NCBI GenBank assembly: GCA_964016885.1
Contig: OZ024742.1
Span: 122,946,001-123,010,000 of the forward strand
DNA length: 64,000 bases
Direction: 5' to 3'
Source: Eledone cirrhosa
Lineage: Eukaryota
Below the pieces are notes generated by a model, which saw only the letters and a list, made by a program, of their open reading frames with translations, did no database searches and was not told the DNA's origin. Each line of letters starts with the position of its first letter. The first letter of the stretch is position 1. Of the stretch, positions 1,025 to 43,457 are shown piece after piece. Made by a program: the position numbers and the translations under genes.

Positions 1025-1173
<149 letters not shown>

Positions 1174-1373
1174 ATACTTGGGGAGGGTCATATTTGTGTA
1201 ATATTGCCAGAATTAATAACAGAACACACTCACTGTTTGGTTGGTTTTCGCTTCTCGCTTCTGTGTCATTTATATCGGTAATATAACTTACTCGGTCCTC
1301 AATGTTGCCATTGACTGACCGGCGGTCAAAAATAATACAGTTACAATATAGACACAAACACATATATATTGTT

Positions 1374-1417
1374 TATCATAAATCTTTCGTTGCACATCTG
1401 CAACATCGTCAGTGGTG
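1374..1417 (-). ncRNA. Minimal type I hammerhead motif in the 3' pLTR
   Basis: Minus strand reads cacca CUGACGA u GUUGCA gaug UGCAAC GAAA GAUU UA ugaua. Core and stem II are intact; stem I is weak. Confidence 0.6.
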
Positions 1418-1884
1418 TTATATTATCCTCCTGTTGTATTGTATGTCTACGCCATTTTTATTCAGTCTGTCTATATATTTATTTATTTATTTGCTTCTTT
1501 GTTTATTTTATTTTGTCTTCTTTGCGCATGCGTTTGCGTGTGTATAGTGTTTTGTTTGCTGTGTGATGGGTGACTAGTGTGTGTTTATGTGCTTGTTGTT
1601 ATTGTGCTTGTGTATGTATTTATTTATTTATTTATTTATTTAATTTTATTTACTTATTTATACTTCTCTTAGGTCAGTGTTGTTTGTTTGCGTGTTGTTG
1701 TTATTCCATTCATTATTTCTGTTTAGCCTTGGTCTTCTAATTTCTATTTCACTAGCCTCTCTGATTTGCCTATCTACTGGGTCATTTCTATGTTTAGATA
1801 TTATTCTAATTTCTATGTTGTCTATGTTACCCTCATGTTGTTGTCTAGCATGTTCGTATAGTACTGACCCGTTTTTTCGTCCTT

Positions 1885-3700
1885 TTAGTTCCCCCAGTGT
1901 TGGTCTATCCTTTCACCTATGCTACGAGCTGTCTCACCTATGTATGTTGTTGTCATGTTTCTGCAGGTACCCTCTGTACATCTTATGCTATAGACTACGT
2001 TTCTAGTTTTACAGTTTATCCGGGGGTTCATCTTACATATGATACATTTCCTATTGGTACAGTGGGTTTTCTTAAAAGGGTAGGTTTTGCTGATCAGGTA
2101 TTTTATGGTGGTTCCTGGCTTTTCTACCACCTTTATTTTTAAGTGGGTCTTTCGCAGGGCCTTTCTACACTGGTTAGATAATTTCCCTCCAGGGGTAGCG
2201 TCCACAAGCATGACACTCTGGTATCTCTGGTTGTCGTACAATGAGGTGGCTTTCCCTATCTTATGTCTAGCCCTATCTAAACTATTCCATGATTTGCTCC
2301 TGTATAATGGGCAAATTCCTTTCATATCCAGTTCTATGAGGGTTTTATACTTCTCCATGGCTCCTTCGTATACTCTGACTCTGTCTCTTTGGTTGTAGCC
2401 AGAGAACTGCATGCGATTGATGAAGTGTTGGATGTGTCTTTCCATTTCTGTTGGGTCGCACATGCGGGAGACATTCTTCATCACCCGTACCAAATCTGCG
2501 ATCACAATATTAAACTTAGCACTAATGGACATTGCTGAGTTTTTGAGTATCAGGTATTTGGAGGCCATGGGTTTAGCATAGTGTGAGTTTGGGCTCTTTC
2601 GTCTATAGTGTTAATCCAGAGTTCTGTGTCTAACACAGGTAGTCTATTGTTAGGGTGTTTGGAAGGGAAGTCGATAGTTACAGTTATACTCTGGTGTATG
2701 GAATTAGTTATCTGCTGGATGCTTTCCATCGTGCTACGTTCTAATTCAAACTTGATAGTTCTCTCTAGTGGGGGTGTTCTTATAACTATATTGATATCGT
2801 CTACATAACGAGAGTACATGATGAGGTCTATGGAATCTCATTAAGGAGATCTTTAAGTCTCCTTTCCCACCATACCATGAAAAGGTTGACAACATCACCA
2901 GCTATGCTGACACCGATGGCTGCTCCCTCATTTTGGGTGTAGATCTTCTCGTTAAACTTAAATATGTGGCCCTTTTGGGTAGTTTAGATACTAGCCCCTA
3001 TTGCATGTGCGACCATTTTTCTTACCTGATCATTGTTTTGTGGGGTCCGTATAGCTTTGGTCCACCCAGTCCACCTTCCCATGGGAGTCTTTTTTGCCAT
3101 AGAGGTTATGGTGGGGGGACTACCTCTTATAGGTCTACTAGGGCAGGAACATCTAAGGTCATGGTTGTCTAGGTAGTCAGTGTCGTAGGTAAGTCTATGT
3201 AGGAGGCCCAGTTCGTCTGTGTCGACGTCGCAGAAATCCACCTCACTCTCAATGATCATCTCCACACATCTTTTCACAGCAAAATCAATGTTAATGGATG
3301 GGTACAGTGACACCACATCCATGCTGCCTATTATGCAGTTGGATAGTTTACTGTTTTTGTTGCACTCACTGATTCTGCTGAAGAGGTCCTCTGTACTGTC
3401 ACATACATCTGGGGACATCTTGATTATGGGTCGTATAACCATTGAGAGGAAGTAGGAGTCTTGTTGGTGGTCCTGTTGTCGGGTCGTCGACTGTCTTGTG
3501 GTCTTTGCGGAGCCCATACAAGGGTGGTATGCCATTGTTAGACGCCTTGAAGTTGTTGGCAGTGCGTCTGCTTGGCTTTAGGATGTCAGTCCACATCATC
3601 ATGTGAGCGTTGAGGATTTTCTCTCTCCCATCGTGTGTTTGTTGTGCAATTTCGCTCGTGTTGGTGATGTGGGGTTGCATAGCCTTGATGTAGTTCGGCA
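1885..3700 (-). pseudogene. Disrupted PLE reverse transcriptase / GIY-YIG endonuclease coding region
   Basis: ORF pieces 3399-3818, 2984-3535, 2550-2819 and 1885-2568 are consecutive frameshifted parts of one RT-EN polypeptide. Confidence 0.9.
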
Positions 3701-3812
3701 TGCTATCTATTGACATCCTACCAGACAATCCACAAGCAAATAAATAAATAAATATATAGACAGACTGAATAAAAATGGCGTAGACATACAATACAACAGG
3801 AGGATAATATAA

Positions 3813-3856
3813 CACCACTGACGATGTTGCAGATGTGCAACGAAAGATTTATGATA
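3813..3856 (+). ncRNA. Minimal hammerhead motif in the inverted 5' pLTR
   Basis: CUGACGA 3818-3824, stem II gttgca/tgcaac, GAAA 3842-3845. Confidence 0.6.
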
Positions 3857-4118
3857 AACTATATATATGGGTTTGTCTCTATATTGTATCTGTATTATTT
3901 TTGACCGCCGGTCAATCAATGGCAACATTGAGGACCGAGTAAGTTAGATTACCGATATAAAAGACACAGAAGCGAGAAGCGAAAACCAACCAAAGAGTGA
4001 GTGTGTTCTGTTATTAATTCTGGCAATATTACACAAATATGACCCTCCCCAAGTATAACAATATTTGTTTCGACACACGATTTCATATAAAAAACCTCGC
4101 AAAACTAATTCATCGCCG

Positions 4119-4173
<55 letters not shown>

Positions 4174-4362
4174 GGTGGACACCTGATGTATATTGGGAGG
4201 TGACCACAGGAAAAAAACTTAATAGTTGAGTTCACTGTTTGTTTCTTACGAATGAAACAGGTCTAGCCCTGTTGAAATCATTTCCATAATAATTGTTTCT
4301 ACTTTTGGCAAAAGGCCAGCAAATTACCAGTGTATTACTGAAATATTGCTGAAATTAGAAGG

Positions 4363-6830
4363 TTGGCCCCTCTTGCACTGTGGAACAATTCTTTCGCGGT
4401 GATTGATTGGTTCAACGGCATATGTAACAAGGAACATTGCCGTTTTATCCAATTCGACATCAACAATTACTACTCCTCCATCACTTTACCAATTCTCCTT
4501 AGAGCTATCAATTTCGCTAAAACACTCACAGTGGTTAAGGATTTCGAAGTTGATGTCATCCTCAATGCCCGAAAGTCGGTGATTAATTTCGACGAGTCTA
4601 TTTGGATTAAAAAATCCAATAGCACCCCATTCGACGTGAGCATGGGCGCTTGTGATTCTGTGGAGGTTACTGATCTTAACGGCCTTTTCCTTCTTTTCTC
4701 CATCAAGGAAGAATTCCCCAACGCGGGCGGTGGTTTGTACCGTGACGATGGTCTTTTGACCATGACTAACTGCGGACCTCGTGCTTGCGACAGGTTCGGA
4801 AAAGAACTCACAGCCTTCTTTAAAGGCTTCAACCTCTCTACACAGGTTGAGGCCAATCTCTCGGTCGTTAATTACCTTGACGTTACCCTCAATTTATTGA
4901 ATGGGTTGTATTACCCGTATAGAAAGCCGAATGATACGCTTAATTATATAAGTAAGCATTCCAACCATCCTGCCAGCATAACCAAGAACCTGGTAAGAAA
5001 CGTTTCGTTGAGGCTTTCCCGTCTTTCCACCAACGAGCGTATTTTCAACGACCATTCCACTTATTACAATGAAGCTCTTGCTTGCTTGAAGTGGATTTGT
5101 CGATAAGGTAGCATATACAGAGTACGAAAATAGACCTAGAAGAAATAGATCCCGTCGCATTTGTTGGTATAACCCACCATATAATATGGAGGTGGCCACA
5201 CCATTAGCTAAGATTTTTCTTTCCCTTATTACGAAACATTTTCCCCCTACACATAAATATAGTAAAATTTTTAATAGAAATACTATTAAAATGTCATACA
5301 CTACGACTCCTAACCTTGCACATAACATCACAGCTTCAAATTTAGCTAAACTACCTAGCCGTAGGAACATGTGCAACCTTGTAGTTAGTACTAACTGTAA
5401 TTGTAAGAATCGGGTTGATTTCCCCCTATCCGGGAAATGCCTCTCTAGTAACATTGTCTACAAATGTAAGGTTGTAACACCCACGTCCCGTAGGGCCTAC
5501 ATAGGGTTAAACGCCAATAGATTCAAGCAGCGTCTTTACACGCATACCCATTCTTTTCGTTACCTTCTAAGAAGGAATATGACGTCACTTTCAGCTTATA
5601 TCTGGAGTCTAAAAGACAACCACACCCAATATAAGTTACACTGGGAGATCCTAGCTAGGGCTAGATCGTATAACGGAAATAAAATACCATATAACTTCTG
5701 CGCCGCTGAGGCCCTGGAAATACTCTACGCCACAGACCACATCTTAAACAAAAAATCTGAGGCAATTTCGGCTTGTAAACATAAATTGCACAAACATTTC
5801 CTGTATTAAAGCCCCACGTTATACCCTAATGGATAGTACGATCTATACGTGGATATTTTACGTCTTAATGTGGGAGCTAAGTATATGTTCTGTTTATACC
5901 ATTACTTATTTGCATAGGTAAGTATATATTACCCGTATGTTTCGGGAAGGTACGTATACCTTCTCGTACGTATATTTGATTGTTTATGTTATGGCGTATA
6001 AACATTTTTTTTTATTTTTTATTCTGGTACATATGGTTTGGCTATGTGTATACAGGAGTTTTGCATCTGTGTGAGTATGCAGGTTCGTACGTATGTAGGG
6101 CGTGTGTATATGTGTACTTCATGTTTTGGTTGACTTACGTCTCCGAACATTCGTGTATTTACATGTAGGTATGTGTGTGCGCTTGTTATTTACATATTTA
6201 TTTATTTATATACGTTTATATAATTATTTATTTATTTATTTATATACACGCATACACACACACACATATTTATATGTGCGTGGTTTTGTATACCTACGGT
6301 AAGTGTTTTGCGTATGCTTGTGTATGTACGTATTTGTTTGCGTGTATGTATTTATTTATTTCTATTACTTCTGTATTGTATTTATTTACTTTGTTCTTAA
6401 CTCTGTAGCGGAGATTCATTCGGTCTCCTAGTTAGAATGTTAGTCTACGACTTCTGCTATACCATTTACGTGGTTTTGTCTTTGCGTGCTATTGTTCTCC
6501 ACGCTCCACATATGACGTATTATCTTCGTTTTTTTCGTTGTATTGCCAGAGAACGTCTCTATGAACTACCTAAGAGAACATTAGTCTACGACCTCTTTTA
6601 TGCCATAAACGTGGTTCTGTCTTTGCGCGTAATTGTTTTTCACTGCTCCTATTAATGACGTATCTTATTCCTTTTTCCCCGTTCTTTGCCAGCGAACGTT
6701 TCCCTCCGGTTGCAACGTTTTTTGAAATATCCACTTCTGCGTTTACAGATTGACTTTGTTAGTTTCAGAAGATCCCGTTAAGGGTGAAAGCAGCGATTCT
6801 TTGCTTAAACTTTAATCTGTTATTTTAATA
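4363..6830 (+). mobile_element. Penelope-like element, Naiad-like, 5'-truncated, with long 3' UTR
   Basis: ORFs 4363-5106 and 5186-5809 contain FIQFDINNYYSSI, FDVSMGACDS, GLYRDDGL, NYLDVTL, YRKPN, CNCKNRVDFPLSGKC and NIVYKCKV...AYIGL. The UTR has a ~140 bp tandem duplication (6440-6705) and a degenerate HHR at 6762-6795. Confidence 0.9.
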
Positions 6831-7481: not shown

Positions 7482-10400
7482 TCTCGAAAAACCATGGATC
7501 TGCAGCTGGAGAATTTTGTGTCAGTGCTGTGACTGTACAGGCTCGCACGCGTGTGGAAGTCCTCTATACAGCGATATCATTTGAAGATGCTCCCGTCCCG
7601 TGCTACTGCGTTGTTCTTTTTTCGAGTATGCCTTTCCTCGTAGATAGGTTTCAGTTCCTCTTACCCTCGTGCAGTACGCGTCTCGATCTTGGGCACTCAT
7701 TTACAATATTCTCCCATCTCTGTATGTCCAATCAATAAACTTTGAAACGGAGATGAAGCTGTCATCGTGCTCATGTGTCGGATGCCGGTTCCCCGTAAAG
7801 TATGTCTTTAGGTAACCTCCCGACCGGCATACATCGTACTTGACCGAGCTAGCACCGGTGGTGCTGTTTGAGCAGCGTGTATATGCTGGGTATCTTGGTG
7901 CCTGTTGGTGACCCGGTGAATCCACTTGATATCCAGAATGTCTCTCATGTTAAGAAGGTGCAATACATTGGGGTGTTGCTCCTGGCCGGAGTAGAGATTC
8001 AATGTCGCGCTGCTATAAAGCAGTGCGCTGAGGACACATGCCTTGTAGACAGAAATCTTGGTTTTCTGGTTCTTTTTCTGTTCTTTCAAACTCTCTTCCT
8101 CAGCCTGGCAAATGTAGAGGTTACTCGTCCAACTCTCCTGCTCAACTCGGGGTCCAGGAAGATGTCAGTGTTGATAAAGGTGAGCTAGATAAATTCGTGG
8201 ACCACTTCCAGCTCGTGGTTGCTGATAGTGATGGTAGGAGCCGTCTCTACTAACTAGGTTGAATCTTCGTGAGGTCAATGAAGGTGGTGTAGAATGGTTA
8301 CCCTTGCTCTCGCTACTACTCCTATAGCTATCGTGGTATACCCTTACAGCGATCTTCTGTATTCTGTTCAAGACCACGGGCGCAAAGACTTCGTAACGAC
8401 GCTTGGATGCGAAAAGCCTCGGTAACTATTGCAGTCGATTCTATCGCCTTTATTCTTATAGAGTGTGACAATATTGCACTGTCATTTGTTGCGGGACAGT
8501 TCCCTTCTCCCAGCACTAGCGCAGTAGTTTCAACAAGTGGCTAAGTAGCACGCCCTTTACCCATCCGATGACCTCTGGATGGATGCCGTTAGATTCTGGT
8601 GCCTTCCCAGCATGCAAGCCATCAATGTCTCTGCACAGTTCTTCAGCAGTCGGCAATACATCTAGCTCCTCCACAACTGGTAGGTATTCCACGGTGTCTA
8701 ACGCATTGTCACAGACGCTGATTTCCTTGCAATAGAGTTTGGAGTAATTTTCCACCCATCTCTCCAACTGCTCTCTTGTACCATTGATGACCTCACATCT
8801 TCTAAATTTTAATGGAGTTGCCTTGATCTGGTTGGCGCCGATGGCTTTCTTGATGCCCTCATACATTCCCCGAATGTTACCTGCGTCAAATGACATTTGG
8901 ATTCCTTCACATAGCTGCAACCTGTAGTCATTTTCACAGCGTCTCGCAATATTTTTTCTCTTGTTCCTAGGTGATCGCAATGTTCGCAACGTTGCTCTAG
9001 TGGGTTATTTATCATTCTTCGGCAGGGCAGCGCTCTTCTCCTCTATGCTTGTATTGAACTCAAACTAGTCACGTCTAATTCCTGGCTTCAATGTAGTATC
9101 ATGGATCGGTTGTCTGAGAGAGGCCTATCTTTGCTGACCATCACATTCCGGGGGGTCTGCAAGGAGGGCATGCTCCAGCGACTTCAGGAAAGCAACTAAT
9201 TTGGATGACTGCTGGGTAGCAGCGGCATTGATATACTGCCTGCCCCGAAGCTTGGCATAGTGCATTATATTTGGTTCGGGTTTGAAATTACAGCAAACCA
9301 AGGAGTGATCTGTGCCATGAAGAGACCCAGTCAAGAACATGTCTCTCAGGTGGATGCATTTGTTAGGATCAGACTTAGCTGCTGCCAGTGTTCTGAACGA
9401 AGGTGACACCAGGAAACTTCGTGCTGAGCATTTGTCACGTAGCATACAGAGCCCAAGCAGTGGTTCCTCACTGTCATTAATTTTACCGTCTCCGTGTTGT
9501 CCCAGATATCCTGTCCAGGAGTCGTGGTCAGCTCCCACACTTCCGGTGAAGTCAACAAGTAGCACCAGCTGTTCTCCATTTGAGTTTACCTGTATTTTTA
9601 TTGAGTGCTGGTCATAAATCTTAACCTTGTCGTCTTGTGTGGAATGAAGGGTTGGGGTATAAGTTTGACAGGCCCATCTGGGGGCATAAGTTTGACAGGC
9701 TCCGCTCCAAACTGTCACTATCGGGTCCTACCATCTTCAACAGTGAGTTCATCTGCAAGAAAAATGTGTATTCTCTCTCATGAATTGTCCCGAATCAGGG
9801 AGCCACGTTTTTTAGAGTAATTCAATGTCTACTCCATGTCATGACAGTCTGTTGTTGATAACTACTGCTTTGTGGGTATCACTGATCTTTCGAACATCAT
9901 CTGACAGACTAGTAGTCATGATCCATATGTTCCAACATCCGAGGCCTAATACCGGTTTCTTACATGGTTTGTTTGTTCACTGATTTTCTCGTTTCAGTGT
10001 TTACTGCCCACAATTCACTCAGTGGAGCAGGTTAGCTGTGACAGGACTAAGTGGTTGGAGGCTGCTCAGCTTGAGACAGGCGGTAGCAGTCCAGTGAGTC
10101 ACAATAACCTATCCCTCCGTCGAAAGCAAACCCTGGCGCCTTGTTCATACAAAAATCATGTGCAGAGTTATATTCGGTAGACTGCTACTTTCTGTGTTTT
10201 GCTGCCGCGGTGATGCGACGTTGGAATTACCTCTCCGGGTCTGCGCCCTAGAGAGGATTTATGGGAAATTAGCAGTTACCCATGATGTATGTCTCCCCGA
10301 TCCATGCCACCGGTGTTGTTGATGGGAAAAGCACCGGCCGATACAACTTAGCACCGGTGGGGCCGCAGAAGTTGCCAGATCGAGGTAGGATATCTTCGGG

Positions 10401-10850: not shown

Positions 10851-11914
10851 GTGAGCGTGTGTATGTGTGTGTGTGCGTTCGTATGTGTGCGCGTTTGTCT
10901 CTGCGCGTGCACGCGTGTCTTAGGGTATGCGGAGTCGGCAGATATGTAACAAAAGAGAACCAGAGAAATACAAAAATAAATACATAGACGCAGAAATATA
11001 GCGATTGAATTGGAGACAGTGTAAATATTCCCCAATAACGTAATATATGTAGATACATCAACCCCAATGTAACAATATTCTGCATATGTTTACTTACATC
11101 TTGTGCATTACAAATGAAATATAACATCCTTTATATAAACATATCTATGTATTATATTTTTTATAAAATTGGTGTAATATTCCACAAAGTTCTCAAGCAC
11201 AGTAGTGTAAGGCTCAGATTTGACCATCTCCTTCACATTTCCCCCCTTCTCTGGGAGAAATCAGCTGTGTTCAGACATATAAAGGGGATGGGCACCGCCA
11301 CGTTTAAAATGCCTAAAACACGGTATATATCACGACAGAGCCCCTACGACTCCATCAGATTGTTCGGATCCATACTTACAAACATATCGTGCAAGCGCTA
11401 AATTTTGGTTTGAATAAATATGTGAGTATGTGTGTTTACAAATGTGTGTATATGTGTGCGTATATGAATTACATGTAGTGTGCATACACGAATGTCTCTC
11501 ATTATGCATTATATTTACAGATAGATATTACCTTATCAACTGTGTATTATAATAGCATTATATATAATGGTATCAATGATAACATTCTCCTATCGTCTAT
11601 AATTATCAATCTTAGTGAATTAAAGTAAAGAAGATGGTCTTCCGTCTCTGTCAAGGAAAACAATGTGAGTTAATGTCGATAACTACACACTGGTTTATAT
11701 CTGTGCCATACACTGATGTATTTATGCAACTTTTACATCTGTAATGATAAGTACAATCCATTCGTCGAGCAGCCTGCCATTTTCTCTGTCCCCACTACCA
11801 TTCACAAGTCATGGATTGACATACAAGCATACATATATATACACCAACATTAACACAAACACACTTAAATCATAGATACATACATACATACACACGCCCC
11901 CCCCCCCACCCCCC

Positions 11915-11965
<51 letters not shown>

Positions 11966-11967
<2 letters not shown>

Positions 11968-13559
11968 CGAGGAAAACTATAGTTAAATTCGATGATAGCT
12001 ACTGGGTTCGCAAAGATAGACCTTCTAATTTTGATATCACAATGGGTTCTAATGATTCGGCGGAAGTAACTGATCTTGTGGGAATTTATATCACCCACAG
12101 ATTACAAGGAAAATTCAAGGATCTCCACGGTGGAATCTACCGTGACGATGCGCTCCTATTAGTTAAGCATATGAATAACCAGAATTTAGAAAGGATGCGT
12201 AAAAATATCAGAAAGCTTTTTAAGGAACTAGGATTAAATATTACATTTGAATATAACCTCAAAGAGGTCAATTTCCTTGATGTTACTTTCAATCTCAATA
12301 CAGATACGATTAAACCGTTCCATAAACTAAATGAGAACCTTAAATATGTAAATACGAGTTCTAACCATCCACTCTCTATAATTAAATCCATCCCTAGAAA
12401 TGTTTCTCTTAGAATCTCCCGCCTGTCGTCCAACCAACAAACCTTCAAAGAACATGCCGAATATTATGATGATGCACTTAGGAAAGCCGGTCACCTAGAT
12501 AATATAGAGTATATAGTCAAAGATCACCAAAACACCCAAAATAAATCCCATAGGAGTAGAAATAGCACAGAATCACCACCATACATACACTACCGCAATA
12601 GACACAATAATAGTCGCACACCACCAAACAGAAGGCGATGTAAGGAGTATATTTGGTACAACCCGGTCTATAACAACTCTATTAAAACCAATCTACCCTC
12701 AAAATTCTTTCGATTAGTTAAAAAACACTTTCCAACATCACATAAATATAATAAAATCTTAAACCCTAACACTATTCGACTTTCATATTCAACCGCCCCT
12801 AATATTGAACAACATATAAAAAAGCTTAACGCAAAACGGTTGTATAAACGCCTTCCAACACATAACAATACACGTAAAACATTAGCTATAACATCACAAA
12901 ACAACAAACAACATCCTGTCCTACATAAGCACCCTCATCAACCAATCCATGGCAATACAACAACGCAAAATTATAATTGCAACTGTGTCCAACCAGGAAT
13001 GTGTCCGTTGAACAATCAGTGTCTTGAACGCAACATCGTATACAAATGTACTATCGAATCGGATAGACAGAAGTGGTACTATGTGGGATCTACAGCCACC
13101 TCCTTCAAATCACGCCTTTATAGACATCGTTACTCGATAAAACATGAAAACCAGCGTTATGTAACAACACTCGCAGACAAGGCTTGGCAGCTGCGTGAAA
13201 ATAACCAACAATTTCACCTAAAGTGGGATATAATAGCGGCTGCTATACTCATGGTATTCTCATTAGAAACCCATTATATACTTGTTTGGCAGTAAATTAA
13301 TTTACCATCTGTCATATACTATCCCCTCTGTTTCTTCCTCTATTACTAATATAAATACTTCAATTTTTCTGATTTTATCCAATTTATCCAAAATCTCTGA
13401 AGAAGTGACAACTGATTATACATTTGCTATCGAATACTTGCTAACATTATATGATTACGCAAGCAGCGATACATAGGTATTCCGTCTGTTACAGAAACAT
13501 ATGTCAATACCTAATAAATTCCTTTTTTAAAAAAAGCACTTTCATTTTATATTCATCCT

Positions 13560-14469: not shown

Positions 14470-14689
14470 AAGTGATATATGTGATATATCTCATATGAAA
14501 TGATAGAGCCAATTCTCCACACAATACAATATAGTTAGCACTCTGAACGTTTAATTAGGAATATACTCAGATATTTCCTAATGTTTGTTGAGTGAGTTGG
14601 AATTTGGCCGGAGTATCGCTATTAGCTTTCTCCGTTTATGTGTTTATATATATATATTTTGGAACGATCGACTTCCGTCAAATCGGACC

Positions 14690-14879
14690 GAGGAAGCAAT
14701 GTTTGCGTTGGTCTTTCCAGTTGCTAATACTATCTATCGGTCGCAACTCCAGGTAGAAGGAGCAACGTGAAATAAAGTGTTTTGCTCAAGGACATAACGC
14801 ATCACCTGGTCTGGGAATCGAAATCACAACCTCACGATTGTGAATTCAATTCTCTAACAACTCAGCCACGCGCCTTCAC
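14690..14879 (-). mobile_element. tRNA-derived SINE (family A, CORE-like central domain)
   Basis: Minus strand shows a ggcgcgtggctgagt A-box, a tttcgattccc B-box and gtccttgagcaaaacactttatttcacgttgctcc. Related copies lie at ~22650-22750, 32820-33035, 39785-39930 and 50140-50400. Confidence 0.8.
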
Positions 14880-19600: not shown

Positions 19601-21974
19601 GACGAAAAAGAAAATGGGGGTGGCGTGGTAGTAATAGTAGAGTTGTGGATAAGATGGAAGGGAAAGATGAAAGAAGGGTAGAGGAAGTAGTAGGAGACGA
19701 CGGGGAGGTGCGGTAGTAATAATAACACTATTAACAATAATAAAAGGACTGACATAAATGGTAGAGTGACCTTAAGGTTGATTGAGAGAGTAATTGCTTC
19801 TAAATATATCTATCTTTCTTAGTATTTCTGTAGGTAATACTGGCATCCTTAATGTGTCCACTGGTGGTAAAAATTGACCTGAAGTGTGATTGTTTCTAAA
19901 TATATTTATCTTAGTATTTCTGTAGGGAAAACTGTCTTTCTTAATTTGTTCATTGGCGTTAATGTTGAGTGCTTGTTGCAGTTTCGTCTGTGGTGGATGC
20001 ATTTAAATAGGGTCCGTATTTAGTGATAAAGTATGATTCTTTACTAATTCGTAGAATGTAGAAAGCGTTCTCTTTAAATCATTCTGAAATTGGGTTGTTC
20101 ATTAGAGGCGCAGGTGGCAATGTGTTTACTCAGTACTATTTTTCTGTATTCCTGTATATTAATTCGGGATCTATGAACGGTTATACCTTGACCGAGACTG
20201 TTTTTAGTTTGTCCTATGTACTGCTCTGGACATCCTAAGCAAGTTAACACATATATCAGGTTTTCTGATGCCCATGTGGAATTGTATTTCAGTGTAAACA
20301 ATGTCCTTGTTTGAAGCAGAACTCTGATCTCTCTATTAGGTTGACGCATATACCACAGTTGGGTCTTCCGCATTTTTTTTACTGTTGGTTTCGTTGTTAT
20401 GGTTGACTGGACTTTGGCCTGTGTTAGGATAATTTTCATTGATTTGGGTTGTCTTTTGTTCTTTATGATGCTGTGAGTTTGATTGATTTGGTTCATTCTA
20501 TGATCCCTTTTTAATAAAGGGATGTTCTGGAGGATGGTGTCGAAGGCTACATTGTTAAGGTGATTATGTGTGGAGATGTATGGTAGGGCTTTCACTTTCG
20601 ATTCATTCTTTAGTTCTGGGTGTCTAAGATCCTGGATACTCAGTTTTAGGGCACGTTGGAATCGATGGTTAATTAGGGATGGTGGGTAATTCCTGCTAAT
20701 AATTGTGTCTTTTAGTTCTTGTAGTCGTATGTAACAGGTGTTTCTATCAGATACTATTGTACATATCCTTTTGCATAGGTTGTAAGGGATATTTATTTTA
20801 GCGTGTCTCGGGTGGAATGATTTGAATGTAAGGTATTGCTTGGAGTCTGTGGGCTTATAGTATATGTCTGTTTCTATTTTTTTCTTAGATTTCTTGATAA
20901 GGATGTAGAGGAAAGGAAGTTGTTGATGGCTGTATTCCATGGACCGTTTTTGTGCAGATGGTGGTCCCAGATTTCTGTCTGCAGAATTTGCCATTGAATA
21001 CGTAATAGTTATTCTCCAAGACAAATTTGAGCTCTTCTATAAAAAATTCACTTATGATGCGGTGTGGGAGTTCATTGGAGAAATGTTCCAGCCATAATTG
21101 GATATTGGAATAAAGGTCGACTACATCAAAAGACACACTAGGGTCATTATTAAGTGGTTTGGGGAGGGGTTGGGCATAGATTATAAGTTGTCCCTTATGT
21201 AGCTTTTAATGTGTTTAAGAAATTGTTTTAATAAGATATCAAGGAAGTTACTGAGGCGATGGGTGTCGCAAGCGGGGCCTGCTATTATAGGTCTTAATTT
21301 GAGGTCATTAGGTGAGGGGACATTGATGAATATAAATATATATATATATCCAAAATTAAATTAAGGGTGTCATGTCAGAGAGACATGCGCTATATCCACT
21401 GTAGAATATTCTCCATGTTTCACAGATCTGAGGCTCCGTTGGATATTATGTCCAATCATGACATCTTAGGAGATAAGCTGAGATTAAGGGTTTGATGACG
21501 GAACTGAACGAGAAATGAGTTTAAGTTTTCAGTTTAATTTTTTAATTTCTTAGATGTGTTTGATTAAATAAATCAGTGAAAACAACATTAAATATACACA
21601 TGAGTTTTCCGACACTGACTAAAAAATTAGTAAAATTTTGAATTCAGAGTCTCATATTTTAATGCTGCTGACTAATATTGTTTCGGTGACATCTAGATAG
21701 TTTTACGGATTTTCCTAACATACAGATTACATTTGTTCTCAACAAACTTTACAATATCAAATTTAAGTGATAGTCCACTGAAAATGACCCCTTTACCACC
21801 ATCTACTGTGTGACCGTCATGCCACGTTTGACGATGTTAGAATGTCTTGTTCTTTGCTTTTAGGAGAGACAGCTTCAGCTAATAGGACGGCTCATCTGTC
21901 GATCTCTATCCAATGCACTATAGATATTCCTAATATGTGAGAAAGGTAGGGATTAATTTGTTAAGAATATTTCA

Positions 21975-25224: not shown

Positions 25225-26500
25225 TTTAGAGTAGTGGTTAGGTACGTAATCATAAGAACGTCTGATAGATCGCTTTGCGGTATTCATTCCAAATCTCTGA
25301 GTGTAAATCGCAACGAGTTCAACTTTCCTTTTCATCCAGTATTGGGCCGATTCTACCACTATACCTCATTCTCCCTTCCTCTCTCTCACTTCTATCCTTC
25401 TTTGGAAGAAATTTGCTATGTTCAGATAGTGTAGCACTCACGGCGACGTTGGAGAGAATAAAAGTTGAGCTTTTCTAATCGACTCCAATAGTCAAGGCCT
25501 GTCATGCCATCTATCTTTTTTGTAATCGATTTGGGGTGTTGCAACTTTCATGATACTTTGTTTCGTGTGGGGAGACCACAGTGGACAACAATATTTAAGG
25601 TGGGGTCAGGCAAAAATGGAGAAGAGAAGGATAACAGTGTGGATATCTCTCGGCTGAAAGGTTTCGAGAATCCAGGAAAACATTCTGCGGGCCATGTCAG
25701 CTTTGCTGTTTATATGAGTGGCCCAACTTAGGTTGTTGTCCACAATTACTCCCAAGTCTCTTTTGTTGTTGGATGCCACTATAGTTTCACCCGAAGGAAG
25801 AGAGTATGGTAGTTTGAGTGCATCCTTTTTTCCAAAGTTGATTAATTCAAACTTATCCTCATCCAACAACATTTTATTCTTTTCTGCCCATTGGATAACA
25901 GCCAGTAGGTCTGACTGAAGGCAAGTCCGATCACCCACCTCATTGATGAATGTTTGGAGCTTGGAATTAACTGGGAAGATTCTTTTGTTGCTGTGCTTGA
26001 TGATTTCAGTAATGTCATTAATGTAGATGATGAAAAGAAGTGGGCCCAACGCAGTGCCTTGTGGGACTCCACAGCTGAATTTGGCAGGGCTAGATTTTAC
26101 TCCTTCGACTGCAACATGTTGGGTCCTGTCTGTCAGGAAACATTTGATCCACTGTATTAACTTTCCAGAGACACCACTATTGGATAGTTTTTTCAGTAGA
26201 ATCTTATGATCAACCCTGTAAAAGGCCTTGCTGAAATCAAGGTAGATGATATCAGTGTTGGAGCCCTCTCCGAAGGCTATCAAAACATCGTCAAAGTGAT
26301 GCAGGAGCTGCGTTAGGTAGTCCCTTCCATTACGGAACCCATGTTGGTTGGAGTTCAGCAAGCCGTTACTTTCAAGAAAGTGGGTTATTCGTGATCTCGC
26401 CATACTCTCAAATACCTTGGTAATATGAGAGGTGAGTGAGATCGGACGGTAGTTCACTGCAAGGAACTTATTTCCCTTTTTGAAGACTGGGACAGAAGGT
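25225..26500 (-). mobile_element. CR1/L2-group LINE, 5'-truncated RT fragment
   Basis: ORF 25606-26457 has NYRPISLTSHITKVFE, NQHGFRNGR, IIYLDFSKAF, GVPQGTALGPLLFIIYINDI and RDLGVIVDNNLSW. The catalytic FADD motif has decayed. Confidence 0.92.
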
Positions 26501-26653
26501 TTTCATATATATATATATATAAATATATGTGAAAGCTTAGTAAAATCGAAGCTTTGGCTGTGGGCAAGCAAAGTCGACCTACAATAGGAATGAGTTAGCA
26601 AAACTCTCAATAAGTGTAATAACTTACGTTTAAATAGCTTGACAAATTGAACA

Positions 26654-39254: not shown

Positions 39255-40215
39255 ATGAATCCGTGCAACATCAAATATTAAAAGAGGATATGTAATCTGC
39301 ATCTGATAGTTATAGTTTTCAAAGCAGGAGAATCCTGTGGTCTTTATCTTTTGGGTAGGTAACAATAATTATAGGCACCAATAATTATATAATTATAGAT
39401 AATTATACATCATTTTATGCAATTGTAATTATATTATATTTCTAGCAGTTGCTTGTTAAATGTTTCCTGCAGTGAAGACTCGTACTCTCCACCCTCTTCT
39501 ATAATAAGGGTGTTATTTTAATTAATTCTTCTTTCTTGGCTCACAATATTAAGTTTGCTAGCACCGACATTTACGATGAGAATATTCTGTTTCGAACATG
39601 GACTATGTGTAGTGTCACAGATGAAATATAATCCATTGAGCCTTCAATTAGCAAGCTACTAACAATTATTATATTTATTTATTTGAACAAGTTCAGCTCG
39701 GATAGATGACTGTACAGCACTGAAGTTTACGATTACACAATGACTTTAACCACTTCAATTTTATAGAACGAAAAAAAAAAGGGTAGGCGCGTGGCTTAGT
39801 GTTTAGTGTATTAGATTCTCAACCATCAGGTTACAAGTTCGATTCCAGGACCGAGTGATGTGTTATGTCCTTGAACAAAGCACTTTATTTCACATTTCTC
39901 CTTCTGTCAAGAGTTGCAAACGGAGCATATCAATTTATGAGCAATGGAAACATTGTTTTCTTGGTTCGATTAGACACGTTCCATCCCACAAGGTAAGCGA
40001 ATGGGGGATCTTGTCGATCAAACTAATATATATATTAATAAATATATACAATATGTAGTAAAGATAACACACCAGAGAGAGATATAGTGCGCCATCAGTC
40101 AAACATGGAAAAACCATCAGTATATGGAATCTATAGCACATGGAAGGCAAAGTAGACACACAATAATTAAAAGTATAAGTCAAAGTGTAAATACGTACCT
40201 TGATAACTATCTAAC

Positions 40216-40296
40216 ACACACGTACAACCAACAGGATCTGTTTCACCAACTAATTTGTTGACAGAAATGATTAGCCTATGGTTCAGCAGCGTGTGT
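40216..40296 (-). ncRNA. Hammerhead copy with core mutation (CUGCUGA) and shortened stem III
   Basis: Inverted copy of 40553-40635 with A6>C and a 2-nt deletion in stem III. Confidence 0.7.
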
Positions 40297-40552
40297 AAGG
40301 CTATATATTTCAGTCAACACTAAAAGAATCTAAAGCGACCGTCCAGCCACACGTGGTAGAGAGAAATTCACAGCGTACCTAGGGCAGCAACCAGTGGACT
40401 CTGAGGGATGAGCTGCTAGAAAGGGCAGCCCAAACCACTCAGAGAAGTGTGCTCAACCAAACGGAGTGTGAAGATACTATTATAAGAAGCGAAATATATT
40501 GGCTGGACGATCGCTTTAGATTATTTTAATGTTGTCTGAAATGTGTAGCCTT

Positions 40553-40635
40553 ACACACGCTGATGAACCATAGGCTAATCATTTCTGTCAACAAATTAGT
40601 TGGTGAAACAGATCCTGTTGGATTTGTACGTGTGT
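40553..40635 (+). ncRNA. Core-intact type I hammerhead ribozyme, predicted cleavage after GUA (40628)
   Basis: ACACACG CUGAUGA ACCA..CUAAU..AUUAG.UGGU GAAA CAGAUCC uguu GGAUUUG UA CGUGUGU. All core bases and three stems are present. Confidence 0.9.
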
Positions 40636-43457
40636 GTTAGATAGTTATGAAGGTTCGTATTTGCACTTTGACTTATACTTTTAATTATTGTCTGTCTATT
40701 TTGCCTTCCATGGGCTATAGATTACATGCACTGGTGGTTTCTCCCTGTTTCACTGATGGCGCACTATATCTCTCTCTGGTGTGTTTTCTTATAAAGGGCT
40801 CGGGATTCCTTCTCCTTTGAGCACATTAATGACAGGGAATAACGAGAGTCTGTGGCTCCGTTAATTTATCGTTAATACACATATATATATATATATAATC
40901 CATTTATCATATTGACCAACCAATTTTGCCACAGAGCGGATTATGGTAAATGTTTCCAAGCAGCAGCTGTTTGTATTAAAACTTGTGACAGATTAAGTCT
41001 ACTAGCTAAATAGAGCTTGAAATTAAGATGTAAGAAACCGGAACCACTACCGCAAGGCATCTCGCCTGATACTTTAAACGTTCCACCAATCAACCACCTT
41101 AATTTTTATCAATATGTTATCTACCTCGAAATGAAGAAAAATTTGAACTGTAGACGCTGGAAGCAATACGCCATAGTATTTTGTCATGTGTTCACCTCCC
41201 ATAGCAAATTTTGCTGCCTACAGTCAATTTTCGCTTTATAATCAACCTGCCGCTGATTTAAAGTTTACATGTGCCTTATAGAAATGTTATATTTCTTTTA
41301 ATAAACATGTCTGCTTGTACGTTTGTATTTTTTAAATTTGATTTGAATTTATTTGCTCACCATAGTCATTTTATTTGCTTAATCTCTTCTTTTTTTAATC
41401 TCTTCTTAGTCTCACCGTCTCCCCCCTCCTCTCTATCTCTATCTCTCTCTCTCTCTATCTTTATTTCTCACACACTCGTTCTCCCTCTCTTTCTTTCTTT
41501 CAGACTTCTCACCAGAATTTACACAATGTATTTAGTTTCACGACCTTCTGCTGAATAATTAACCTTTCTATTCATTTTTCGATCCTGTTTTTAACATTCT
41601 AGAAATTCTTTTCTACTTAGCGATTTCACCCAAATACATTGCACCCGTAATTAAGTCTAAGCGTTCTACTTTACTAATCACAATCAATGATCTCATTCAT
41701 TTCTTTCTGAAAAGGCTTCATTAGAACAGAAAATCTGATGTTTCTTCTGAAAATAACAAATCCTTACAGTGCTCTACTAACAATCTCTTTCCCTCTTGTC
41801 ACAAATTTTCCACATAGTCTTCTAATTCTATTTCATACCAGTTTGATATAACATTTAATGAAGAATAGAAATTAGTTAAAGTGAATTATTACATTTAGCT
41901 CACTAGAAGACGCTTATACAATACTTCCATATTAATTCTTACCTCCTTCATTTCACACATTTAATAGATTAAGTTAACTGTAAAATATTTTATGTTATGT
42001 ATATATATATATATATATGTGTGTGGGGGGGGTGTAAGTATGTGTGTGGGTCTGTGTGTGCATGTGTGTGTGAGAGCGTGTGTGTGCGTGTGTCTGTATA
42101 AAAATGCATCTTGACAACGTTTAGGCGAATTACGACTTGAATATTAAGCTATCTTATAGATAACGGCTTCAACTCATGTTTTTTTACTATGAATAATAGT
42201 CGAATATCTTGGACATAAATCTAATGGAAGTACAATCGAACGGTATTCAGCCGTTATGAGGTCTAATCACACGCGTGACTCTTTCCACTTTTACCCTCTC
42301 CAGGGGCTTTTATACCCAACTAGGTTTTCAGTAACTCCACGAGAGGTGGGAGGAAGTTATTCCGCACCGGATATCTGGTCTACATAAATGTTATAAAGCA
42401 AACATTGCTAAAGTCAGACAATGGTCAGTTGATTGTACGACAAAGGACAGCGGATTAAGGTTTGCCAGTCAAATATATATCTTTATAAATAAGTATATAA
42501 AGGCACACTCTAGTGTGCCTTTCGCTGACACGCATTGGTAAAAGATATTAACACCAGCCACAAAAGAAAATCCTCGGAAATTTTGAAAGGATGGCCTTTC
42601 AGATATTTGTTCAATACTATGTTGCAAACATTCTCTTGCCTCTCTCATTCTGTCAGGTGTACAATGTGTTACTGGCCAACAGAAAACATTTAACAAATGG
42701 CGTTATCGATATCAAATTAAAATATAAAACCATTGAGTAAATAACTAGAAAAATACATTTCCTTATTGTATAATCCAAATAAAAAGAATCATTCAGACAC
42801 AGTATTCAGATCTACATATTATAATACAGATGATGATGCTGTAGGGGAGTAAATAGTACGAACTTTGGAAATCTTATTCCCGTTAGAACTGAATCATAGC
42901 CAAATAAACTGGTTATGTTTTTATATGTTCTTTTTGCCATAAAGTGATAAAATAAAGTAGGCAGTGGGATGTGGATTCTCCGATGAAGAAATTAAAGTGA
43001 ATTCTCAACGATTTGAACTCCCAACACAGAGAAGGGGAACAAATATCTCAAAAAATTCTATCCGATCAGCTATCCCCGCTGTTATTTTGCTGCCTCGCTT
43101 GGTGTATTCTTTCGTCCCTGAAGACCTTCTGTTGTTCAGCTCTCCCGAGAGTTGCTTACCACATATAATCCATTGGGAGTCTGTTGATGTCTCCTTTGGC
43201 ACTTATCCTCAAAAACACTGGTAAGATTTAATTAGGATTTTTAGAATACAGTTAAGGGATTATAAAGAATCTTTTTGCGATCTGAAATGTTAAATTGGTA
43301 ACCAACTTTAACTCACGCTTAATATTTTCAGCCATATAAGACCTTAAGGGAATAAAACTTGTTAAAATAGATTATTCGAAAATAATTGATGCCCACAATA
43401 TACGGTACAGTTCATAATTATTTCAAAGTGAGTGGAATAAGTCGTATGTGATATAAT

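Follow-up and report, generated by a model that had tools for sequence, protein, structure and literature searches.

A type I hammerhead motif with a long loop II complementarity in an inverted repeat of Eledone cirrhosa

An inverted repeat with a hammerhead motif in one arm

We analysed 64 kb of the Eledone cirrhosa genome (assembly GCA_964016885.1, contig OZ024742.1, positions 122,946,001 to 123,010,000 of the forward strand), here called the window and numbered from its first base. Near 40 kb the window holds an inverted repeat, likely a 5'-truncated insertion of a Penelope-like element (PLE), with a type I hammerhead ribozyme motif in its right arm (Table 1). The unusual part of the locus is a predicted helix of ~20 bp, which we call P0, that would join the large loop II of the hammerhead to the flank upstream. 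An earlier note, made from the sequence alone, had described a foldback at 40061..40880 without an open reading frame. Sequence comparison recovered the foldback: 40061-40349 and 40500-40790 are 92.1% alike over 291 nt, with a 150-nt spacer between them and their 5' ends pointing inward. Between the arms there are 21 substitutions and one 2-nt deletion. No overlapping stop-free frame of at least 120 aa was found over 40061-40880, in agreement with the note. The proposed limits needed adjustment. The left arm extends to ~40046, because family loose ends before 40789-92 match its outer end, and in the right arm a short deletion near 40790 is followed by a one-sided tail (40792-40872) not present on the left. 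Both flanks are TA-rich and no target-site duplication is readable. The spacer contains a hairpin (z -2.49; 2 of 200 shuffles equally good) that is vaguely hammerhead-shaped; it was rejected as a second hammerhead, as by eye it departs from the core at four or more positions.

Table 1. Features of the locus in window coordinates
Feature	Position	Strand	Basis
TA-rich left flank, likely target microsatellite	40024..40045	.	sequence
Left arm, inverted head-to-head copy of the element's 3' repeat (pseudo-long terminal repeat-like); TA-rich outer end, no tail	40046..40349	-	sequence comparison, family loose ends
Damaged hammerhead copy	40215..40297	-	CUGCUGA core (A6 to C at 40286), 2-nt loss in stem III
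Spacer, 5'-truncated remnant of element body, part of the repeat family	40350..40499	+	contig depth
Hairpin within spacer, in a well-covered family block	40399..40444	+	folding against shuffles, contig depth
Right arm, direct copy of the 3' repeat	40500..40790	+	sequence comparison
P0 5' strand (P0b 40530-43, P0a 40546-51), one base from stem I	40530..40551	+	folding, duplex energies
Type I hammerhead, complete core, predicted cut 40628/40629	40552..40636	+	sequence, descriptor scan, shuffles
P0 3' strand, inside loop II, one base from stem II	40572..40593	+	folding, family loose-end strings
One-sided 3' tail of element, ~80 bp, deepest-covered family block	40792..40872	+	contig depth
(TA)n right flank, likely target microsatellite	40873..40897	.	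sequence, depth drop

By its core and stems, the right arm is a type I hammerhead motif, for which self-cutting is predicted from the sequence after 40628, at a GUA site. Stem I pairs 40553-59 with 40629-35 (7 bp, or 8 with a flanking U-G), stem II pairs 40567-70 with 40601-04 (4 bp) and encloses a loop II of 30 nt, and stem III pairs 40609-15 with 40620-26 (7 bp); the core strands are CUGAUGA at 40560-66 and GAAA at 40605-08. Set against the definition of the core and core-adjacent pairs in Perreault 2011 (PMC3088659), the right arm carries C3 U4 G5 A6 N7 G8 A9, G12 A13 A14 A15, U16 and H17. Pairs 2.1-1.1, 10.1-11.1 and 15.1-16.1 are G-C, A-U and A-U, and the three stems count 8, 4 and 7 bp, with stem I open. 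A descriptor scan of the window found two motifs only, one per arm, and the strict descriptor had no match in 100 dinucleotide shuffles of the window on both strands. Sequence and descriptor thus bear out the complete right-arm hammerhead of the earlier note, with its 7-bp stems I and III and GUA site. The Rfam models named there as a check (Hammerhead_1, HH9, HH10) gave no match: no hammerhead reached the gathering score in the window, and none was among the three hits at E<=10 in 39500-41500. The 'extended stem II' of the note (6 bp) can be drawn in both arms and was rejected as a feature of the family, since common family variants break its pairs (40578 A>T, 40595 A>C in 76/86 reads, X5, and deletions at 40599-40600). 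Variants common at 40615-17 affect only the loop and closing pair of stem III, leaving six of its pairs untouched.

The stable stem III, called atypical at the outset, is longer at 7 bp than in minimal animal PLE hammerheads (PMC6765202). The difference is one of degree only, as larger stems are known elsewhere: large or stable helices III occur in hammerheads of fungal and protist PLEs, the only PLEs for which PMC4209133 reports them. With the minimal animal motifs of Cervera and de la Pena 2014 (PMC4209133) the present one shares type I topology, a complete core and an arrangement as opposite-strand pairs 100-700 bp apart, described there in Schistosoma. It differs from them in its 7-bp non-palindromic stem III, its 7-8-bp stem I, its 30-nt loop II and a 4-bp stem II that opens with A-U at 10.1-11.1 and not with a bulged base before G10.1-C11.1, and so falls outside the minimal dimer type. 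Hydra-clade PLEs (PMC8557442 File S2) are likewise animal elements with a (TA)n target; several of their stems III open with ACAG and close with CUGU or UUGU, and in Penelope-13_HM, as at the present locus, there is an inverted copy, in its case a 5' one, and the motif occurs on both strands. In contrast, their stems III have 3-4 pairs and their loops II 3-10 nt, that file lists no long pairing with a flank, and the motif of the octopus member, Hydra-1_oBim, differs from ours. Invertebrate retrozymes cut as monomers (PMC7761336, PMC7229834).

Loop II is complementary to the 5' flank

Loop II and the 5' flank of the hammerhead are complementary over a length that would give P0 ~18-20 bp in total: 6 bp in P0a, a 2x2 loop, and 12 of 14 pairs in P0b of the right arm. 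This pairing was absent from the earlier note, yet lies inside a segment named in it (40530-40660). The duplex energy was -22.7 kcal/mol in the right arm, equalled by none of 2000 shuffled flanks, and -21.8 kcal/mol in the left arm (2/2000), odds that are optimistic, as the segments were picked after the pairing had been seen. When 8,530 30-mers of the window were scanned for pairing with the loop, four scored better, three of them apparently the loop's own antisense copies. In a chain growing from 40500, P0 reached a probability of 0.98-1.00 at ends 40586-40626 and 0.94 at 40700, and its completion preceded that of stem II by 11 nt and that of stem I by 43 nt. Judged by hand, the pairing survives in most of the family variants visible. 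Variant 40572 A>G retains a wobble, and 40545 G>A (222/226 and 179/181 reads, X5) together with 40578 A>T would add a pair. Among five loose-end strings that span the loop, all pairs are kept in one with a wobble and in one with two wobbles, two lose one pair, and one loses two pairs of P0a.

In the proposed mechanism, P0 would form first during transcription and close a 20-nt loop that contains the 5' strand of stem I, the CUGAUGA core and the 5' strand of stem II. Docking of the downstream strand on this loop would create a pseudoknot and require the distal 3-6 pairs of P0 to open. Fraying of this far end is expected because, by our estimate, 7 nt cannot span ~22 base-pair steps, and opening the whole distal segment costs 6.6 kcal/mol. 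With one base between it and stems I and II, P0 sits where a brace would be expected. A pseudoknot between stems I and II is used by about 40% of hammerheads and is able to form ahead of the other parts of the ribozyme (PMC3088659). Like the pseudoknot-braced hammerheads described there, including human C10/HH10, the present motif would have an early-forming helix from loop II to sequence beyond stem I; theirs, in the examples compared, measure 4-6 bp, against 18-20 potential pairs here.

The locus belongs to a high-copy repeat family

Seven sequencing runs were listed, none of them recorded as RNA, and four of these (at most three samples, from two studies) were aligned to 40345-41000 (656 bases) at 80% likeness, yielding 864 and 912 contigs and 1,604 and 1,363 restriction-site-associated DNA (RAD) reads. 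Summed contig depth, which is not copy number, ran to thousands or tens of thousands over 40389-40476 and 40521-40872 (7,855-32,821 over 40389-40476; 20,507-78,499 over 40807-40872) and fell to 0-5 at 40873-94 and 0-45 beyond 40873, a contrast of about a thousand-fold. The spacer, the arms and the tail all belong to a high-copy repeat family, and the contrast in depth suggests that the spacer is element body and that the element ends near 40872 at the (TA)n run. Three of the four opposite-strand joints listed connect the spacer (40368-40392) to 40502-40555, in one contig each, and resemble the present copy's own 40350/40500 junction. Read ends piled at 40365/68, 40597, 40683 and 40866 were considered as RNA ends and rejected, all lying on AATT sites and hence being RAD restriction cuts. 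Two further family joints jump from ~40466 to 40784-40809, so that some copies are without the whole hammerhead region. At 40521-40529, the left arm and nearly all family reads have a pyrimidine tract ending in AG; speculatively, it may be a 3' splice site that ends just before the first base of P0. The intron of Drosophila virilis Penelope ends at helix I (PMC4209133).

The layout is that of a PLE insertion. Insertions of endonuclease-bearing PLEs consist of a 5'-truncated copy with an inverted partner, a one-sided tail and a microsatellite target (PMC8557442, PMC3846280), and head-to-head is their commonest arrangement, the tail being optional (Arkhipova 2013, PMC3846280). The present locus has the inverted 5'-truncated head-to-head copy, with like joints in three other contigs, the tail on one side, a hammerhead in the terminal repeat, and (TA)n flanks as in several clades. 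An inverted terminal-repeat product of a PLE-type family, as first proposed, is therefore supported by comparison with the published layout (PMC3846280; Craig 2021, PMC8557442), from which the present copy differs in having no open reading frame, no parent found and a longer tail. A single insertion event would have produced both arms. The ribozyme of the parent element would cleave tandem precursor RNA at the site matching 40628/40629, following the model of PMC4209133. The layout itself, a hammerhead with an inverted twin, is already known, and the locus is ordinary and probably inert.

The left arm holds the twin that the earlier note had recognised by its CUGCUGA core and its deletion in stem III, and the sequence confirms both. 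Among the 40 family substitutions listed (98 more exist, and nine of the 21 arm-difference sites have no entry among those listed), the family allele was the left arm's at 11 or more of the 21 substituted sites and neither arm's at one. Because the left arm holds the family allele at so many sites, both arms must have drifted, at ~4% each. With this drift the computed probability that exactly one arm is hit in its core is 0.48, so neutral decay can give the broken twin and no selection is needed. We infer that the left core broke by chance and that both arms have drifted since insertion. Read-through RNA from either side would form a ~290-bp duplex burying the ribozyme. Folding predicts ~-516 kcal/mol for this duplex and a stem I probability of ~1e-72, which agrees in silico with the masking that the earlier note had envisaged.

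Searches for a parent and for relatives covered several sources. Naiad was considered as a parent, as the 38-nt CUGAUGA-to-GAAA spacing is within the 35-50 nt of the 'HHR_half_core' class (PMC8557442), and this was unsupported: the last ~600 bases of four of the five cephalopod Naiads in that paper's supplement showed no likeness by eye. Ten exact short-motif searches of the supplement, in which line breaks can hide matches, gave two hits in algal Chlamys consensi that were taken as chance. The 3' ends of Naiad_Obim and Naiad_Ovul (PMC8557442 File S5) have the order GUA site, GAAA, CUGAUGA; by eye, stems I and III can pair and stem II is weak. The non-circularly permuted type-SGC hammerhead has its parts in that order (PMC10085705), and some Naiad 'half-core' motifs may, on sequence grounds, be permuted hammerheads. 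Pattern scans for the core plus stem II returned 12 viral and 107 metagenome loci, none of which (0/119) resembles the element (blastn E<=0.1); five of them have a stem I of 4-5 bp and look like chance or coding sequence. Family-specific patterns gave six loci and none in prokaryotic genomes, and none in viral contigs.

The window contains other elements. A second PLE-type insertion at ~1170-4120 has a divergent build like that of the present locus, with broken frames resembling reverse transcriptase (RT) and GIY-YIG on the minus strand, an inverted arm from ~3735, a one-sided extension at 4066-4120 and (TA)n on both sides. Its arms carry a CUGACGA...GAAA core at -1412 and +3818 that fails the stem I/III descriptor, and a third copy of this core lies at +46486. 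Minimal-hammerhead-like cores at -7093, -29074 and -47195 (CUGANGA...GAAAC, tiny stem III) also fail the descriptor. Further transposon remnants lie at 4342-5809 (+), 11820-13295 (+), 20074-21036 (-), 8516-9727 (-), 25606-26502 (-) and 53677-54833 (+). The remnants in the window include PLE-like frames and one RT frame (Pfam RVT_1), and relatives of the frame 20077-21036 (-) carry RT and GIY-YIG domains by protein search. Some of the remnant frames we take to be RTE-like or Helitron-like. The PLE-type frames elsewhere in the window have no DNA likeness to the repeat. Two copies of a repeat resembling a short interspersed nuclear element (39785-39975 and 14677-14875) are 74% alike and by eye show wording like the A and B boxes of tRNA genes; no tRNA was called by ARAGORN.

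Interpretation and alternatives

We favour the reading that the locus is likely a 5'-truncated PLE insertion in (TA)n that decays neutrally, and for its hammerhead we predict monomeric cutting with P0 as a brace. For P0 itself, we give an oversized pseudoknot brace an even chance, and a lock and an incidental relic equal, smaller chances. A number of observations, set out here and in the next paragraph, count against our reading. The nested hammerhead fold had a probability of only 5e-4 to 4e-6 in five stretches, a minor score that is common when folding ignores pseudoknots and Mg2+. P0 had a probability of 0.00-0.01 when the chain from 40500 ended at 40636 or 40650, and for the two arms RNAalifold returned a different fold. 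Two of the four distinct variant patterns in the loop-spanning strings break one or two P0 pairs, and a compensatory double change cannot be shown, the family variants being unphased. By a rough geometric estimate, the 7-nt linker is too short for full P0 to coexist with stem II. The same element might instead carry P0 as a lock that forms first and excludes stem II in cis, with the ribozyme inactive as long as the 5' flank is in place; transcription starting further downstream, splicing, a protein or another copy acting in trans would remove or displace that flank. The early completion of P0 in the growing chain fits this alternative, as do the energy of P0 with stem III (-28.9 kcal/mol, against -22.4 for the nested hammerhead) and a length far beyond that of the pseudoknots compared from PMC3088659. 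However, removing the P0 5' strand in silico left stem II at only 2%, so loss of P0 alone does not free the fold. P0a also has the brace-like placing, one base from both stems, and the energies come from a model blind to pseudoknots and Mg2+. We consider the lock reading of the locus unlikely.

Other points concern the element as a whole. No parent RT/GIY-YIG element linked to the repeat was found, PLE identity resting on architecture, and the ~80-bp tail exceeds the 30-40 bp of published PLEs. The family could also be a non-autonomous unit of ~0.5 kb that resembles a retrozyme and moves with PLE enzymes supplied in trans, and not the 3' end of an autonomous PLE. Animal non-LTR (long terminal repeat) retrozymes (Cervera and de la Pena 2020, PMC7229834; PMC7761336) are, like the present copy, non-coding, AT-rich and high-copy, with a monomer-foldable type I hammerhead, and those of invertebrates have a stable helix III (PMC7761336). 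In contrast, they are arrays of 150-400 bp arranged head to tail and yield circular RNAs, while the present copy is inverted and tailed. Sequence comparison found no direct, same-orientation copy elsewhere in the window, and none of the five joints listed, nor one more tabulated, is head-to-tail. The drop in depth 5' of 40389 might mark the end of such a unit, but loose ends preceding 40389 are similar to 40360-88 of the window itself, which makes the drop look like divergence and not an end. A retrozyme-like origin is therefore improbable in our view. Selection on the right-arm ribozyme, either as a domesticated ribozyme or as an edited double-stranded RNA regulator in a host transcript, in line with an earlier idea involving ADAR, is very unlikely. 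It would account for what neutral decay alone does not predict, namely that the 85-nt hammerhead holds 2 of the 22 arm differences where 6.4 are expected (P=0.025). In addition, 11/11 right-arm-specific changes fall outside 40546-40648, and the strong duplex of read-through RNA could serve such a regulator. With P0 included, however, the deficit is not significant (5/22, P=0.12), and gene conversion between the arms or selection in source copies could produce the same pattern. Only two A>G and one T>C are found among 11 polarised changes, so there is no editing imprint. No host-gene Pfam family scored above cut-off in 105 frames from 24-64 kb (one RT frame matched), and the duplex would hide the very ribozyme supposedly selected. 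The most remote of these alternatives is a foldback created by misassembly of a repeat. No aligned read or contig spans the whole stretch or the present copy's inversion junction, and PLE inversions trouble assemblies (PMC8557442), but the arms differ at 21 sites plus indels and similar inversions occur in other contigs. One contig (40843-41000) also runs from the tail into the flank with no differences, although its 30 letters on the element side are one below the bridging rule.

What hammerheads do in animal PLEs has yet to be settled, because the minimal forms cleave inefficiently and need to dimerise (PMC4209133, PMC6765202). The literature covered gave no description of the present motif or of a pairing as long, and part of the PMC3088659 survey did not include type I motifs that are highly repetitive. 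We tentatively suggest, at less than even confidence, that this is a high-copy animal Penelope-type family with an undescribed hammerhead architecture, in which a ~20-bp P0 would fold first, ring the catalytic strand and act as a brace or switch that times monomeric cutting. If so, hammerheads with loops this long would go undetected by Rfam and by the short-spacer descriptors applied to PLEs. With thousands of natural copies, a motif of the monomer type would permit a covariation test and clean kinetics. If P0 is a brace or switch, the known size range of hammerhead pseudoknots would be extended and gaps in current searches exposed.

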